64,000 nucleotides of DNA, taken from an uncultured Actinomycetes bacterium (GTDB lineage Bacteria; Actinomycetota; UBA4738; HRBIN12). A model generated the notes under the pieces. That model was not told the DNA's origin, did not search any database, and was given only the letters and a program-made list of their open reading frames with translations. The position numbers and the translations under genes are program-made. This document shows, piece by piece, positions 31,255 to 37,049 of the stretch; positions within the stretch are counted from its first letter, which is position 1; every line of letters starts with the position of its first letter. The stretch covers positions 58,638-122,637 of the forward strand of contig CAWGTU010000002.1 of the NCBI GenBank assembly GCA_963825635.1, written 5' to 3'.

Positions 31255-31878
31255 CGGGCTGTTCGTCGGGGTCGGCGACATGCCGGGCCGCCACTGTTCC
31301 ACGGCCCCGCCGTCGGGAGCTCGGTCGAGGCAGGTTCGCCGGCAGACCTCGCCGGTGAAGCTCGTCATCGCCCACCAGAAGTACGACGTGCGGAACCGCC
31401 CGAACTCGAGGGTCTTGATCGGCACCGCGACCGACATGCCGTCGGACGACTTGCGTCGGACCTTCACGTTGCGCAGGAACAGGTCGCGACGGTCGCGGCG
31501 ATCGCGCCAGAGCGACGCCTGCAGGTCGGATCCCGTGCTTCGGACCACCACGAAGTACTCGGCGTCCTCGCCTCCTTGGGTGTCGAGGAAGACGTAGGCG
31601 TTGCCGCGGTCCCAGATCGACGCGGGCCTCCAATCGGCGAACGTGATCACTGTCACCTCGGTGCGGCCCTGGTGGTCGAGGCGCACCTTGCGCACATCGA
31701 GCAGCCCCCGGGTGTCGTTGGGATCGTCGACGTCGCTGTGGAACGACGGCGCGGCGAGCGCCGCCAGCGCCATCGCCACGATCAGGCCCGCCACGAGGAA
31801 CGGCACGACCGAACGCAGCGGTGATGCGGCCCAGCGGTCGCGGGTTCGGATCACGCGGGCGTCCCCCGGCCCAGCCAT
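31231..31878 (-). CDS. signal-anchored hypothetical protein (last gene of the MauD/MauE-like operon)
   Basis: TM anchor VVPFLVAGLIVAMALAALAA followed by a roughly 170-aa soluble domain. The alternative GTG 31854 start overlaps the upstream stop (GTGA). Confidence 0.5.
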   Translation of the reverse strand: MAGPGDARVIRTRDRWAASPLRSVVPFLVAGLIVAMALAALAAPSFHSDVDDPNDTRGLLDVRKVRLDHQGRTEVTVITFADWRPASIWDRGNAYVFLDTQGGEDAEYFVVVRSTGSDLQASLWRDRRDRRDLFLRNVKVRRKSSDGMSVAVPIKTLEFGRFRTSYFWWAMTSFTGEVCRRTCLDRAPDGGAVEQWRPGMSPTPTNSPSPTAGSA

Positions 31879-32975
31879 CTGATCGCCGTCCACGCGGTGA
31901 AGCCTGCCACGCCGAGACCCACGACGACCAACACCATCGGTAGCAACTCTCCCGAGGTGGGCCATCCCGGCCACGACAGCACCGGCTCGGGAGCGGGACG
32001 GAGCGTGACCACGAGCGCGAGCGCCGCGAGTGCCGCGTTGCGCATCAGCAGGGCACCGGGCTCCACCGCTTCGCGACCGCCGAAACACCCGCACGGCACC
32101 TGCGGACCGAATCGGCGCCATGCGCGCACCGCTTCCGCGGTGAACACGACCAACAGCACGAGTGCCCAGACGCCCGCGGTCCGCGTCCAGCCCGACGCGA
32201 CCATGATCGGGACGAGGGCTTCCGCGGTCGGCACGGCGAGCGTGGCGGCGCTCTCGACACCGTGTGGGAGCCCGTGCTCATCGAGCGTGGCCCGCCATCC
32301 TGGGAGATCGACCGCCTTCGACATCGCCGCCCACGCGAAGGCGATGGCGAGGGCCGCGGTCGCGAGCGAGGCCCACCCGTCGTCGGCCTGCGTCGCCAGC
32401 GCGACCGACACCACGGCGACGACGACGAGCACAACCCCGTTCGCGAGGTTCCGTCGGCCCTCCGGCGACCCGGCCAGGCGATCGACCAACCGTTGGGACT
32501 CCTGCTGGGTGTGCACGCCGGCCGACCTGGCGGCCGAGAGACCCCGAACCAGCCCGAACGGCGCGACGATGAGCGCGCCCACCGCGGGATCACCCGAGGC
32601 GAACGCGGCGAGAGCCACGACCACGAGGGTGCCGTGGGACACGTAGGTGAAGAACCCGATGCCGAGACCGGCGCCGTACAGGGTCGCGGCGATCGGCCAC
32701 GAGAAGAACTCACGCCACCAGTCGGGAACCTGCCGGCGGAGCTGCGGCACCGTTGCCGTCACGCGGGGGAGCTCCCCCAGCGCGTAGACGATCGCCGTGA
32801 TCGCGACGGCCACGGCACCGGCGCGTCCCCAGGGCGCCTCGAGCAGCGCACCAGTGAAGCCCAGCGCGGCGCCGAAGAGCGCGGCGGTCACGGTCGCGCC
32901 CGCAACGTGCAGCGATAGGGCGACGGCCCACCTCGTTCGTCCCCCGTACACGACGGGGGTGATGGTCTCCACCAT
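31851..32975 (-). CDS. MauE/DoxX-like polytopic membrane protein (methylamine utilisation MauE family)
   Basis: 374-aa multi-TM protein whose C-terminal region has the VPCGCFG motif characteristic of the MauE family. Confidence 0.65.
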   Translation of the reverse strand: MVETITPVVYGGRTRWAVALSLHVAGATVTAALFGAALGFTGALLEAPWGRAGAVAVAITAIVYALGELPRVTATVPQLRRQVPDWWREFFSWPIAATLYGAGLGIGFFTYVSHGTLVVVALAAFASGDPAVGALIVAPFGLVRGLSAARSAGVHTQQESQRLVDRLAGSPEGRRNLANGVVLVVVAVVSVALATQADDGWASLATAALAIAFAWAAMSKAVDLPGWRATLDEHGLPHGVESAATLAVPTAEALVPIMVASGWTRTAGVWALVLLVVFTAEAVRAWRRFGPQVPCGCFGGREAVEPGALLMRNAALAALALVVTLRPAPEPVLSWPGWPTSGELLPMVLVVVGLGVAGFTAWTAIRWLGRGTPA

Positions 32976-33082
32976 CGACAGCCCTCAGGGGCCGTAGAGC
33001 GCTGACCACCCGGCGACCGCCGACGCTGTGACGAGCATCAGGAGCAGTGCCATCGCGAGTGCGCCGCCGCCGAACGGATCGG

Positions 33083-33601
33083 TCAACACTTCTTGTTGAG
33101 CTCCCTGTAGGTGATGCAGAAGACCTTCAGCCGCCGCGGGCAGTATCCCCGGACCGCATAGTCCCCGTTGATGCGGATGTTCGAACGGGAGCAGCAGTCC
33201 TGGATGTGGCGCAGCCGACCCGAGCAGCACCGGGTCCATCCGCCTCCGTACCGCGGTGACCCGGTGAAGGGGTACGCCTCGGGCACGACCTGCTCGCACG
33301 TCTTGCGGCGGGTCTGCTTCCGAGGATCGACGTACTTGTCCCCCTCGTCGTCGACCGGGTACCCGTACTGGGGATGCATCGGGTAGCCGTAGCGGTCGGT
33401 GCGGGACAGCGGGGAGTACGGGTGGGGGCAGGAGCCCGTCGTATAGGTGTGCCCGCAGATGTGATAGGCCTGCGCGCGATCGGGCGCGATCGCGGTGGCC
33501 ACCAGGCCCCCGCCGGCGAGCGCCACCACCCCCCGGCCGACACGACCGAGGAAGCTCCGGCGGCTGGTGCGCGTGGCGAGCGATCGCTCCGCCCGTTCCA
33601 T
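33083..33601 (-). CDS. Tat-secreted cysteine-rich small protein (10 Cys), MauA-light-chain-like candidate
   Basis: Twin-arginine signal TSRRSFLGRVGRGVVALAGG…AQA. The roughly 125-aa mature part has 10 Cys including two CC pairs (RCCSG, DCCSRS). It starts 5 nt after the MauD-like stop. Confidence 0.6.
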   Translation of the reverse strand: MERAERSLATRTSRRSFLGRVGRGVVALAGGGLVATAIAPDRAQAYHICGHTYTTGSCPHPYSPLSRTDRYGYPMHPQYGYPVDDEGDKYVDPRKQTRRKTCEQVVPEAYPFTGSPRYGGGWTRCCSGRLRHIQDCCSRSNIRINGDYAVRGYCPRRLKVFCITYRELNKKC

Positions 33602-33606
33602 CGAGG

Positions 33607-34116
33607 TCAGCTTGCCCACTGTGCGCGATCCTCCGTGATCCGTCGGTTGGCGGTGTCCACGAGCCCCTCGACCTGTTCGAGGTTGTTCACGGTCCCCTTG
33701 GCGCGCACGACTCCCCGTTCGTCGAGCACGACGACGAACGGGGTGCCGGGAACCGCGAGCGCTCGCTCGGCTTCGGTGTCGTGCACGACGATCGGCTCCA
33801 GCCGTCCGGCGGCGGCGGCGGCCGGCACCCCCGGCGCGACCTCGAGGCAGACGGCGCACGTCTCCGAGGCGAACAGCACGAGGCGAGGCCGGCCCGCGCC
33901 GCCGAGCACGACCGCCCCCCCGTCGGCGTCGTGAGCCGAGAGCGGGGGCAGCGGCTCGCCGAGCGCCGGGCCCTCGTCGTCGATCTCGAGGGCGCCGCGC
34001 GGACCGAGCCGCAGATGCAGGGTGCCGACCTGCCGGGCGAGCGCGACCACCACGATGCTGAGCACGACCACGAGCAGCCACAGCACGACGAACGCCAGCG
34101 CCCACCACCCGGTCAT
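33607..34116 (-). CDS. TlpA/MauD-like thioredoxin-fold thiol-disulfide oxidoreductase, membrane-anchored
   Basis: N-terminal TM anchor and ETCAVC (CxxC) active site in a redoxin fold of about 169 aa. Confidence 0.7.
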   Translation of the reverse strand: MTGWWALAFVVLWLLVVVLSIVVVALARQVGTLHLRLGPRGALEIDDEGPALGEPLPPLSAHDADGGAVVLGGAGRPRLVLFASETCAVCLEVAPGVPAAAAAGRLEPIVVHDTEAERALAVPGTPFVVVLDERGVVRAKGTVNNLEQVEGLVDTANRRITEDRAQWAS

Positions 34117-34176
34117 CCGGCCGGTCCCCCGGCGGGTCCTCCGGCCATCACCGTTCGGCCGGCGCTTCCCACGGCC

Positions 34177-34737
34177 TCAGCGCATCGTCCAGGTCGGCTG
34201 CTTCGTCTCATCGAGGAACTGTACGAACGGTGAGCCGTCGCCGGCCAGTCCGACGATCGCCCGAAGCTCGCCCGCCCGGTCGAGCAGACGGAGCACCGGT
34301 GAGCCTTCGGCGGCCAGACCGAGACGAACCCGCACCTTGCCCGCGTGGTCGTAGAGACCGAGCGTCGGGGACCCCTGCTCCGCGAGGGCGTAGACCTGGG
34401 AGAGCTCGCCATCGGCCACCTGCATCCCCATCGTGGGTGACGCCTCGGGTGCGAGACCGAACTTCGCCCGGATGCGCCCGTTCTTGTCGCCGAACGCCAG
34501 GCTCGCGCTGCCGTCGCTCGACAGGCCGACCGTCGCACGCACCTTTCCGTTCTCGTCGCCCACCGCGAGCCCGGCGGCACCGTCGGCGGAGAGGCCGAAC
34601 CGCATGCGCACCTGCCCGTCGGGCGACAGCAGCGAGAAGAACGGGTCCTCGTCGTTCGAGAGCCCGATGCGCACCCTGACCCGCCCGTCGTCGTCGACGA
34701 CCTCGAACTCGCCCGCCTGCACGACTCGCTTCTTCAT
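34177..34737 (-). CDS. tandem-repeat protein (7 x ~23 aa, consensus xGxVRxRxGLxxDGSxxLxxxDx), hypothetical
   Basis: Direct inspection shows seven consecutive 23-residue repeats (DGQVRMRFGLSADGAAGLAVGDE, NGKVRATVGLSSDGSASLAFGDK, ...). No signal peptide. First gene of the operon. Confidence 0.55.
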   Translation of the reverse strand: MKKRVVQAGEFEVVDDDGRVRVRIGLSNDEDPFFSLLSPDGQVRMRFGLSADGAAGLAVGDENGKVRATVGLSSDGSASLAFGDKNGRIRAKFGLAPEASPTMGMQVADGELSQVYALAEQGSPTLGLYDHAGKVRVRLGLAAEGSPVLRLLDRAGELRAIVGLAGDGSPFVQFLDETKQPTWTMR

Positions 34738-34975
34738 GTCACTCCAGACCCGCTCGAGGTCGGGGAGGCGACGACCCGGCGGAGTGCCGGGTCCGCGGTG
34801 TGAGGCGGGCGCATCTGCGTATGGTCGCCCCTGCGAGCCCTCGGCTCAAGCACGTGCAGACACGCGAACAGACCCGGGAAGTGAGAAACCGCCGGAACCC
34901 GGGGGCCCCAGCGGTCTCTCATGGTGGACGTTACGGCCGGTGTGGGTGTCCCGTCAAACTCGGGCCGGGTTCTTG

Positions 34976-36088
34976 TCACACTTTCCCGAGAGACTCCCGG
35001 CGCAGCGTCGTCTCGGCCAGGCGATCGGGGCGCGGAGCCACCCCGATACCCGTGCCCGTGGGCACCGCCATCGTGCCGTCAGGAGCCATCACGAACGGCG
35101 CGGTGAGGTCATCGAGGAAGTACCGAGCGCTCGCACTCGTGTCGCCGGGCAGCGTGAACCCCTGCATCGCCGCGAGCGCGAGGTTCTGCGCCCGACCGAT
35201 GCCCGTCTCGAGCATGCCCCCACACCAGACCGGCACCCCGGCGGCTCGGCACACGTCGTGCACCCGCCGCGCCTCGACGATGCCGCCCACTCGTCCCTGC
35301 TTGATGTTCACGATGCGACAGCTGCCCAGCTCGAGCGCCGCGACCGCGTCGGCGGCGGATCTGATCGACTCGTCGAGGCACAGGTCCGTGCGGACCAGGC
35401 GCTGCAGCTCGGCGTGGCGCACGAGGTCTGCGTGATGCAGCGGCTGCTCGATCATCAGCAGGTCGTAGGCATCCAGCGCCCGGAACACATCAAGATCCTC
35501 GATCGTGTACGCCGCGTTGGCATCCACGCTGAGAGCGATGTCGGGATGCGCGGCCCGCACCGCGCCCACGCGCTCGGCGTCGATGCCTGGCTCGATCTTG
35601 AGCTTGATGCGCCGGTAGCCCTCCGCGAGGTAGCCCTCGACCTGCTCGAGCAGCGCCTCGGTGGTGTCGGTGATGCCGATCGACACCCCGCAGGCCACCC
35701 GGTCGCGATCGGCGCCGAGCCACTGAGCCATGGAGACTCCGTCCGCCCGGAGACGGGCGTCGACGACGGCGTCGATCAACGCGGCCTTGGCCATCGGGTT
35801 CCCACGGACGTGCCCGAGGAGGCGGTCGAGATCGTCGATCGCGACGTGATCGGCTCGCAGGAGCGCGGGCGCCAGGTGATCGCGGATCACGAGCCACGCG
35901 CCTTCGTTGAACTCCTCGCTGTAGCCGGGCTCGACGTCGGCGACGCACTCCCCCCACCCTTCCGCCTCGTCGGTCTCGACACGGACGATGATGCACTCCT
36001 TCGCGGTCGACGTCCCGAAGCTCGTGCGGAACGGTCGCACCAGTGGCAACCCGATCAACCGTAGCTCGACGTTGCGCACGACGCTCAT
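34976..36088 (-). CDS. enolase-superfamily enzyme, o-succinylbenzoate synthase / N-acylamino-acid racemase-like
   Basis: Has the KxK (RIKLKI) motif plus the metal-ligand D/E/D positions (SVDANAAY, MIEQP, CLDES) of the MLE/OSBS subgroup. Confidence 0.75.
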   Translation of the reverse strand: MSVVRNVELRLIGLPLVRPFRTSFGTSTAKECIIVRVETDEAEGWGECVADVEPGYSEEFNEGAWLVIRDHLAPALLRADHVAIDDLDRLLGHVRGNPMAKAALIDAVVDARLRADGVSMAQWLGADRDRVACGVSIGITDTTEALLEQVEGYLAEGYRRIKLKIEPGIDAERVGAVRAAHPDIALSVDANAAYTIEDLDVFRALDAYDLLMIEQPLHHADLVRHAELQRLVRTDLCLDESIRSAADAVAALELGSCRIVNIKQGRVGGIVEARRVHDVCRAAGVPVWCGGMLETGIGRAQNLALAAMQGFTLPGDTSASARYFLDDLTAPFVMAPDGTMAVPTGTGIGVAPRPDRLAETTLRRESLGKV

Positions 36089-36897
36089 GGTGTCGGCTCC
36101 GACGCGAGCAGATAGGTCGGGCGCCCGCCCTGGCGGTCGGGCTCGAAGGCCACGACGGCGAGCCCGACGGCCATGCAGGCGTCGAGCGTCGCGGCGGCGG
36201 CCTCACGCCATGCCGAGCCGAGCGAGGGGTCGGCGGCGCGCACCTCCGCGTGGTCGCGAGGGATCTGTGCGGCGACCACCTCACCCTGGCGCGGGTCGCC
36301 CACGACCTCGGGGACGGGAGCGTCGACCGAGCCGGTGCTGCGCAGGATCATCCGTGCACCGTCGGGGATCGGCGGGGCGGCGGGGATCGCATCGAGCGTC
36401 CACCGGACCACGAGCCGATCGCTGCGGTCGCCCGTGTTGATCGAGTCGGGCATCTGTCCGTAGTAGTCCCGATGGAACCGGTCGCACGTGGCGCCCAGCT
36501 TGTTCACGTTCAGGTGCGCGTTGCGTGCGACGAGCGGGTCGAACGTCCAGCGCACGAGGTGGATGCCGCGGTCGAGGCACGAGGCGCGCTGTGCGAGCTT
36601 GAGCGCGTACCCGACGCCGGCATGCCGCCGATCGGGGAGGGCGGCGAGCATGTGCGAGTGCTCGTGGAGCCCGTCGTCGGGCGAGATGGCGGCCCAGCCG
36701 AGCACGTAGCCGACCAACTCGTCGCCGTCGTGCGCCCCCCACGGCACGTTGCCGGAACCCGCGAGTGCCTTCACCGTCTCTCTGGGGATCGCTTCGCCCC
36801 ACGTCGCCATCATGACGCGCAGGATCGCATCCGCGTCGTCGAGGGAGGTGAGGGGGCGCAGGTGCACGCCGGCCGCCGACGCCGCGTCGTTCGCCAT
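36085..36897 (-). CDS. GNAT-like acetyltransferase family protein
   Basis: ATG 36897 (MANDAASAAGVHLRPL...). The central region has acyl-CoA N-acyltransferase features. Its stop overlaps the menC-like start (ATGA). Confidence 0.5.
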   Translation of the reverse strand: MANDAASAAGVHLRPLTSLDDADAILRVMMATWGEAIPRETVKALAGSGNVPWGAHDGDELVGYVLGWAAISPDDGLHEHSHMLAALPDRRHAGVGYALKLAQRASCLDRGIHLVRWTFDPLVARNAHLNVNKLGATCDRFHRDYYGQMPDSINTGDRSDRLVVRWTLDAIPAAPPIPDGARMILRSTGSVDAPVPEVVGDPRQGEVVAAQIPRDHAEVRAADPSLGSAWREAAAATLDACMAVGLAVVAFEPDRQGGRPTYLLASEPTP

Positions 36898-37049
36898 AGC
36901 CCACGCGGATCCCTCCACGCGCCGGAGTCTATCGACGGCTCCCCTTCGGGCAGTCGCCCTCCAGACGGACGGTTCGACGAAGGCGGAAGGCCCGCCGCGT
37001 GGCGGGCCTTCCGTCGAACGAACCGCCGGCACGGCCGGCGGTGGCTCGG

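Follow-up and report, generated by a model that had tools for sequence, protein, structure and literature searches.

We examined a 64,000-nt stretch of DNA (contig CAWGTU010000002.1; hereafter the window) from an uncultured Actinomycetes bacterium, centring on a minus-strand gene for a protein composed almost entirely of 23-residue repeats. This repeat protein gene, here called REP, appears to head a module whose products would be, in order, REP itself, a MauD-like thioredoxin, a Cys-rich protein with a twin-arginine translocation (Tat) signal, a small transmembrane peptide, a MauE-like disulfide oxidoreductase and a secreted protein (Table 1). The sequence GGAG lies 6 nt ahead of the REP ATG, and an in-frame stop 36 codons upstream rules out a hidden N-terminal extension. 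The plus-strand open reading frames (ORFs) which overlap REP are artefacts of the high GC content.

Table 1. Features of the REP locus, in window coordinates.
Feature	Position	Strand	Evidence or remarks
REP, repeat protein gene	34177..34737	-	186 aa + stop; ORF translation, orthologues, AlphaFold2 (AF2) predicted local distance difference test (pLDDT) 88
REP N-terminal cap, residues 1-16 (MKKRVVQAGEFEVVDD)	34690..34737	-	alignments A1/A2; first strand E10-14
Seven tandem 23-residue beta-hairpin units, residues 17-177	34207..34689	-	offset-23 self-similarity, unit identity, AF2 model
REP C-terminal cap, residues 178-186 (TKQPTWTMR)	34180..34206	-	counterpart of the family GKxIW(S/Q)AP end
MauD-like membrane-anchored thioredoxin-fold protein, CAVC motif	33607..34116	-	TIGR02661 E=1.5e-22
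CysTat, Cys-rich Tat-signal protein, 178 aa	33083..33619	-	Tat signal match; 10 Cys in mature part
34-aa transmembrane peptide, between CysTat and MauE-like genes	32985..33089	-	sequence
MauE-like membrane protein, 374 aa, CGC motif	31851..32975	-	PF07291 E=1.3e-21
Last module gene, 215-aa protein, N-terminal hydrophobic segment	31231..31878	-	kept after MauE in related loci
12-nt tandem repeat (CCGGTCCTCCGG, 3.2 copies)	34109-34146		spans MauD-like 5' end (start 34116) and intergenic spacer
Promoter-like element CTTGAGCC-N15-GCGACCATA	34820..34850	-	fixed 31-nt spacing; about 50/57 species
Conserved 17-bp RNA stem-loop, REP sense strand	34883..34920	-	pairing and compensatory changes
TTGACG-N18-TAACGT promoter-like hexamers	34928..34957	-	conserved columns in alignment A3; 7 nt upstream of stem-loop
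GNAT-like gene (277 aa) and enolase-superfamily gene	34976-36918	-	weak Pfam matches (GNAT-like); above TIGR01928 cutoff (enolase superfamily); 4-nt overlap

Self-comparison of the REP protein peaks at offsets of 23, 46, 69 and 92 residues. At offset 23 the mean BLOSUM62 score is 1.55, where 500 shuffles reach 0.0 at best. Residues 17-177 resolve into seven units, each of exactly 23 residues, with a mean pairwise identity of 36% as against 8.1 +/- 1.2% in shuffled sequence (z=23). Unit positions G2 and L10 are invariant and R5, G9, G14, S15, P16 and D22 each recur in five or six of the seven units, giving the consensus (D/N)G-x-V-R-x-x-x-G-L-x-x-D-G-S-P-x-L-x-L-x-D-x. At the DNA level, a 69-nt repeat is detectable in the last two units only (34228-34363, 78% matches), and the repeats are therefore old and maintained at the protein level. 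The N-terminal cap fits (K)V(I/V)RAxxFxLxD, a motif of the family that most relatives carry behind a transmembrane anchor; D15, within this cap, and W183, within the C-terminal cap, are invariant in alignment A1. REP contains no cysteine, no lipobox and no hydrophobic N-terminal segment (maximum Kyte-Doolittle hydropathy, KD19, of -0.13 in the first 30 residues). The initial annotation had counted seven 23-residue units, proposed a unit consensus and remarked on a missing signal peptide; the count and the missing signal peptide are borne out, and its consensus agrees with the conserved positions of the realigned units.

A scan limited to one genome per species returned REP orthologues in 59 Actinomycetota species represented by metagenome-assembled genomes, at 70-100% identity. 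Each of the 56 full-length orthologues analysed has 186-187 residues, starts with MKKR(V/I)V and is free of cysteine, and neither a hydrophobic N-terminal segment nor a signal peptide was found among them. The median pairwise ratio of nonsynonymous to synonymous substitution rates (dN/dS) is 0.17 at dS ~0.8. In every locus the identity of REP exceeds that of all its neighbours, as in L028, where REP stands at 83%, the menC-like gene product at 73%, MauD at 67%, the Cys-rich protein at 66% and MauE at 52%. REP is a real gene under constraint. Some public gene calls for REP (P0001, P0003, P0005, P0011, P0069, P0118 and P0131) are longer or scrambled, with frameshifted tails or fused neighbours (P450, menC-like). 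We did not accept the longer calls (P0001, P0005, P0011, P0069 and P0118) as real extensions, since a frameshift or a fusion in the call is the probable cause; the scrambled tails and the fusions seem to stem from frameshifts or faulty assembly rather than to be domain fusions.

No relevant match to REP was obtained from Pfam-A or NCBIfam at E<=1, and no meaningful match for REP or its distant relatives was found in PHROGs, PADLOC, Pfam-A or NCBIfam. Relatives are nevertheless within reach of a phmmer search with REP alone (P0028, E=1.7e-13; P0032, 3.6e-7; P0033-36, 1e-4 to 4e-4), which recovers proteins of Latescibacterota, Planctomycetota, Aminicenantes, NC10 and Proteobacteria at 26-37% identity. 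These have in common an N-terminal cap, (K)V(I/V)RAxxFxLxDxxGxxRAxL, a 22-23-residue repeat unit of variable copy number, LxLxDENGKxRAxLxVxKDGP, and a C-terminal cap, LxLxDxxGKxIW(S/Q)AP, the WxAP type of ending being dominant in the sampled family. The similarity of REP to the family runs from end to end and takes in both caps, and the same fold is predicted for the distant homologue P0034. A profile search of 1.84 billion cluster representatives (50%-identity clusters) placed 20,721 clusters in the family at E<=1e-3, 9,855 at E<=1e-10 and 1,090 at E<=1e-30.

Most of the sampled distant members (218 of 244) have a charged helix and a hydrophobic segment ahead of the repeats, which is a coiled coil plus transmembrane anchor, or a long signal. 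Roughly 10% of the sampled members elsewhere are anchorless, and the N-terminal anchor is thus typical of the family without being obligatory; REP and its 56 full-length orthologues begin at the N-terminal cap, with no anchor. On sequence similarity, REP belongs, as a member without an anchor, to a very large family of bacterial proteins that has no curated description. Its lack of a match to any curated repeat family, as first reported, held up in the library searches. The suggestion that it may be a new repeat family holds in so far as the family is new to curated databases, and fails in that REP is not a family of its own, being one among those 20,721 cluster representatives.

Loci of the distant family were located in metagenomes through a back-translated YDENGKPRA pattern, which had no match in viral contigs. 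Two or three tandem paralogues occur in 6 of 38 such loci (for example L106:7160-8901, L113:730-2349 and L116:1259-3445), some mixing anchored with anchorless forms. The contexts of three distant members are unrelated neighbourhoods, one of them within a cluster resembling a type II secretion system (T2SS) or pilus. The idea of an anti-sigma factor was dropped, as NCBIfam matches reached only E ~0.05, in two members, and the extracytoplasmic function (ECF) sigma gene near REP in L148 probably belongs to an independent YCII-sigma pair.

The AF2 model of REP, built from a 76-sequence alignment, has a pLDDT of 88 and a predicted template modelling score (pTM) of 0.71 and comprises 16 beta-strands, with one hairpin per unit. 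Confidence is lowest in the atypical unit at residues 101-123 (pLDDT 65-71 around residues 100-125). For the anchored homologue P0034 the model has this fold too (pLDDT 91.5), preceded by a helix at residues 3-55. Each unit would consist of a strand (phi-x-phi-x-D, phi being hydrophobic), a turn (xxG(K/R)), a second strand (phi-R-phi-x-phi-G-L) and a second turn (sxDGS/P), so that the N-terminal cap, seven units and C-terminal cap would form one 16-stranded antiparallel single-layer sheet. We thus regard an open single-layer antiparallel sheet, of the type seen in OspA, MORN and TCP proteins, as a high-confidence prediction. The initial annotation had named AlphaFold modelling as a check on its "beta-hairpin solenoid"; the model retains the hairpins, one to a unit, and replaces the solenoid with an open sheet.

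Along the strands, one set of alternate residues is apolar (mean Kyte-Doolittle 2.6), and the other contains 10 Arg and 11 Gly. This alternation suggests a sheet with Leu, Val, Phe and Ala on one face and an Arg ladder with Gly and other small residues on the opposite one. A fully apolar exposed face would imply dimerisation or a bound partner. Such a sheet may be pictured as a rigid binding platform, its apolar face taken up by a second copy or a client.

In a Foldseek search with the REP model, the top 18 matches were all engineered OspA sheets, the best at a query-normalised TM-score (TMq) of 0.60-0.68; wild-type OspA was much weaker (E 1e-4, TMq 0.38). At the sequence level, the only PDB matches were OspA variants with a duplicated 23-residue hairpin (profile E=3.8e-8). 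The central single-layer beta-sheet of OspA and its engineered hairpin-duplication variants (PDB 3eex, 3cka, 5ys7, 6kk9) resemble REP in architecture. However, the OspA sheet is capped by N- and C-terminal globular domains and is polar or charged on both faces, whereas REP is all repeats; OspA is, moreover, a spirochaete (Borrelia) lipoprotein, and its long sheets are laboratory constructs. The likeness is probably convergent, amplified by repetition. The TCP (G-box) domain of CPAP/SAS-4 has a similar single-layer architecture, but belongs to a eukaryotic centriole protein, has another repeat length and lacks sequence similarity to REP. RHS/YD repeats have in common with REP a YD-x-x-G-(R/K) hairpin turn and hairpins of roughly 21 residues, and RHS shells come next after the OspA sheets in Foldseek, with high probability yet with TM-scores of at most 0.24. 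PF03527 matches the C-terminal cap weakly (E 0.015-0.4), and no match to Pfam RHS_repeat (PF05593) was found for REP or the family members. RHS repeats wrap a closed shell around a toxin, for which REP is far too short.

MORN repeats, which are modules of protein-protein interaction and dimerisation (PMC7725318), are REP's nearest natural analogue as regards repeat period, hairpin unit, type of sheet and a binding role without enzymatic activity; they are not a demonstrated family for it. As in the REP model, their 22-23-residue units form one beta-hairpin each and stack into an elongated single-layer sheet. It could be argued that REP is a highly divergent member of the MORN/MORN_2 superfamily, a reading compatible with the others discussed here, and an artificial seven-copy consensus of the family does reach 43 bits with PF07661 (MORN_2), where the gathering score is 29.6. 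This score is reached solely through the 8-10-residue YDENGK turn, with no single stretch significant, and natural relatives fall below the gathering score (27.5 and 22.8 bits). Neither MORN nor MORN_2 (PF02493, PF07661) matches REP or eight family members at E<=1, the unrelated OspA variants match better in both sequence and structure, and profile searches of the PDB returned no MORN chain. The MORN signature YxGxW...GK.HG.G and its aromatic groove are absent in REP, which has only the G-K turn in common with it and features instead L-x-L-x-D / V-R-A-x-V-G-L, an Arg ladder and specific N- and C-terminal caps; unlike MORN proteins, the relatives of REP are mostly membrane-anchored bacterial proteins. 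We therefore consider membership of this superfamily distinctly improbable.

The MauD-like gene begins 60 nt downstream of REP in the window, and its product scores 80 bits against TIGR02661, under the curated cutoff of 188.6. CysTat has 718 homologues at cluster level, at ~70% identity, and no Pfam domain; its match to TIGR02659 lies in the signal peptide only (E=0.023), and an assignment as the methylamine dehydrogenase (MADH) small subunit was rejected, having neither Pfam nor PDB support. No Pfam or PADLOC match was found for the 215-aa protein. CysTat always lies between the MauD-like (CxxC) and MauE-like (CXC) genes, which are followed by a gene for a 176-215-aa protein with an N-terminal hydrophobic segment. 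MauE is reported to replace DsbB by means of its CXC active site (bioRxiv 10.64898/2026.03.05.709764), and clusters of mauE/mauD with a Cys-rich precursor have been noted in Streptomyces (PMC7794033). Because of these precedents, the cassette resembles a pair dedicated to oxidative folding together with the substrate of that pair. It is not a methylamine dehydrogenase cluster. REP itself has no match to Mau components, and no gene for the MADH heavy subunit was seen in the locus.

The tandem repeat of Table 1 occupies part of the spacer between REP and MauD, which differs by a 24-nt indel between the closely related contigs L002 and L003 and in which a generic promoter and terminator scan found nothing. 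L052 is without the usual cassette and has a different, inverted mini-cluster (L052:7864-9764, minus strand) ~1.3 kb downstream of REP, composed of genes for an 89-aa Cys-rich Tat peptide, a MauD-like protein and a MauE-like protein (31% identical). In the same contig, REP is translationally coupled with the gene for a 434-aa protein that has a signal-like segment at its N terminus.

The cassette is found downstream of REP in 36 of 57 informative species, and in many of them the REP stop and the MauD start overlap as ATGA. Approached from the opposite side, a reverse look-up from CysTat placed a REP orthologue directly upstream of MauD in five of six loci. In L148, REP and the cassette occur together in another genomic context, where a YCII gene and an ECF sigma gene precede them, and with the REP upstream element. 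The proposal that REP is the first gene of a MauD/MauE-like operon is supported by these observations; the co-occurrence of its homologues with MauD/MauE genes extends to those 36 orthologue species and stops short of the distant family, which has no conserved neighbour. It is well supported that REP is a conserved, cytoplasmic and non-enzymatic protein of beta-hairpin repeats. To the fuller reading, in which this soluble protein serves as a rigid binding platform at the head of an oxidative-folding module, we assign a probability of roughly 0.45. As the sole cytoplasmic product of the module, REP may, ahead of export, bind the precursor of the Cys-rich Tat protein or some other product of the module, acting as a holdase or escort, and would also keep a role independent of the cassette. 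We advance this pre-export function for a module client only tentatively. Small cytoplasmic proteins encoded beside a twin-arginine substrate are known as Tat-substrate chaperones (TorD, DmsD, NapD), and by analogy with them a chaperone role for REP is plausible. The analogy is functional only, as the folds are unrelated and the REP gene also occurs with no substrate gene nearby.

Several observations weigh against this reading. Firstly, the structural premise is open to revision: the two faces of the sheet were read from sequence alternation alone, a single-layer sheet with one wholly apolar face is physically unlikely as a monomer, and the true quaternary state or tertiary packing may differ from the model, for example by a fold-back at the atypical unit 5. 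Known Tat chaperones are, in addition, mostly helical (TorD/DmsD) or small alpha/beta proteins (NapD) and not repeat sheets. Secondly, the link to the cassette is loose. REP occurs without an adjacent cassette in 21 species, where the downstream genes are unrelated, and cassette presence changes state at least six times, by gain or loss, on the REP gene tree. Mean column entropy is 0.40 in REP from species with the cassette and 0.45 in those without (r=0.82), and no group-specific REP residues distinguish the two sets. In one cassette lineage (L144-146, with nine further places like them) REP is absent within 4 kb, and in the distant family no conserved neighbour was found, any one gene being common to at most 4 of 38 metagenome loci. 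The chaperone role first proposed is, in a strictly dedicated form, not supported in view of the species without an adjacent cassette, the equal constraint and the cassette lineage with no REP nearby.

Alternatively, the function of REP might be unrelated to the cassette, REP being, for example, a general scaffold or self-assembling sheet and the cassette merely using the promoter of a well-expressed, conserved gene. The retention of REP under identical constraint in 21 of the 57 species, the repeated changes of cassette state and the lineage without REP all speak for such an account, as do the lack of a conserved partner in the wider family and the upstream element, which belongs to REP in all contexts. 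Against it stand the ATGA coupling of REP to MauD in many species, the position of REP directly upstream in five of six independently sampled cassettes and the joint occurrence of REP and cassette in the different context of L148. On balance, we judge a function unrelated to the cassette to be rather unlikely.

A further alternative places REP beyond the membrane. Some proteins without a signal, among them hydrogenase large subunits and DmsB, are exported together with a Tat-substrate partner, and REP might similarly travel on the twin-arginine signal of CysTat and end up as one of the subunits of a disulfide-rich complex at the cell surface, with MauD and MauE maturing the complex. The same repeats are placed on the outer side of the membrane in around 89% of the sampled relatives, and REP is co-encoded, often with translational coupling, with a module containing a Tat-signal protein. 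Yet 21 species have no adjacent carrier, anchorless family variants elsewhere lack such a cassette, and the gene following REP is MauD rather than the Tat protein, and we find co-export on CysTat very unlikely. By extension, REP would be the signal-less form of a normally extracytoplasmic amphipathic sheet that hitchhikes to the surface, and its family of 20,000 clusters would constitute a new class of single-layer-sheet envelope proteins, which we regard as a long shot. The cytoplasmic binding platform remains our preferred reading.

The promoter-like element upstream of REP recurs across contexts as CTTGAGCC-N15-GCGAC(G/C)ATA, with a variable spacer that is often self-complementary. Its distance to the ATG is 82 nt in the window, 32 nt in L148 and ~25-45 nt in most other species. 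The element does not fit the housekeeping -10 hexamer and may represent REP's own promoter or operator. A Sigma-28/WhiG reading of the GCGACGATA element is doubtful, as its spacing would not fit. Farther upstream, the conserved stem-loop is present in 27 of 57 species, with 99.3% of cells paired across 26 distinct sequences and double compensatory changes at two pairs; as it contains invariant G-U pairs, it is specific to the sense strand. No Rfam match was found in the conserved upstream region. The stem-loop may serve as a 5' leader or stabiliser, or as a small RNA, or it may end transcription of the menC-like gene as an I-shaped terminator. The TTGACG-N18-TAACGT pair, which a generic sigma-70 scan did not call, is at most a weak promoter candidate.

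Upstream of REP there is always a GNAT-like gene and an enolase-superfamily gene of menC/N-succinyl-amino-acid racemase (NSAR) type (TIGR01928, 308 bits). TIGR01928 is of o-succinylbenzoate synthase / N-acylamino-acid racemase type, and the pairing points to an N-succinyl-amino-acid racemase pathway and away from menaquinone synthesis. Some species have a 1.9-kb insertion between these genes and REP. About 12 species have, inserted between the menC-like gene and REP, a gene whose 404-595-aa product carries a transmembrane segment at its N terminus (for example L020:4237-5922, L052:4008-5795 and L034:4686-5900), and the stem-loop block is still found downstream of it in several (L035, L039, L052).

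The family to which REP belongs is new to curation and is a known kind of repeat architecture; on present evidence it is not a categorically new system. It nonetheless comprises ~20,000 clusters at 50% identity, across many bacterial phyla, that are without a curated model, name or structure, and REP offers a clean, short, anchorless and highly conserved representative. Among the PDB matches found, engineered OspA constructs ranked best and eukaryotic MORN/TCP proteins next. Should the predicted fold prove correct, the family would supply natural long single-layer beta-sheets with one apolar face and would be useful in studies of beta-sheet stability and in protein design. MauE has been proposed as a widespread DsbB-like disulfide-forming enzyme (bioRxiv 10.64898/2026.03.05.709764), and the link between REP and its module gives a testable handle on how oxidative-folding modules treat their substrate before export.
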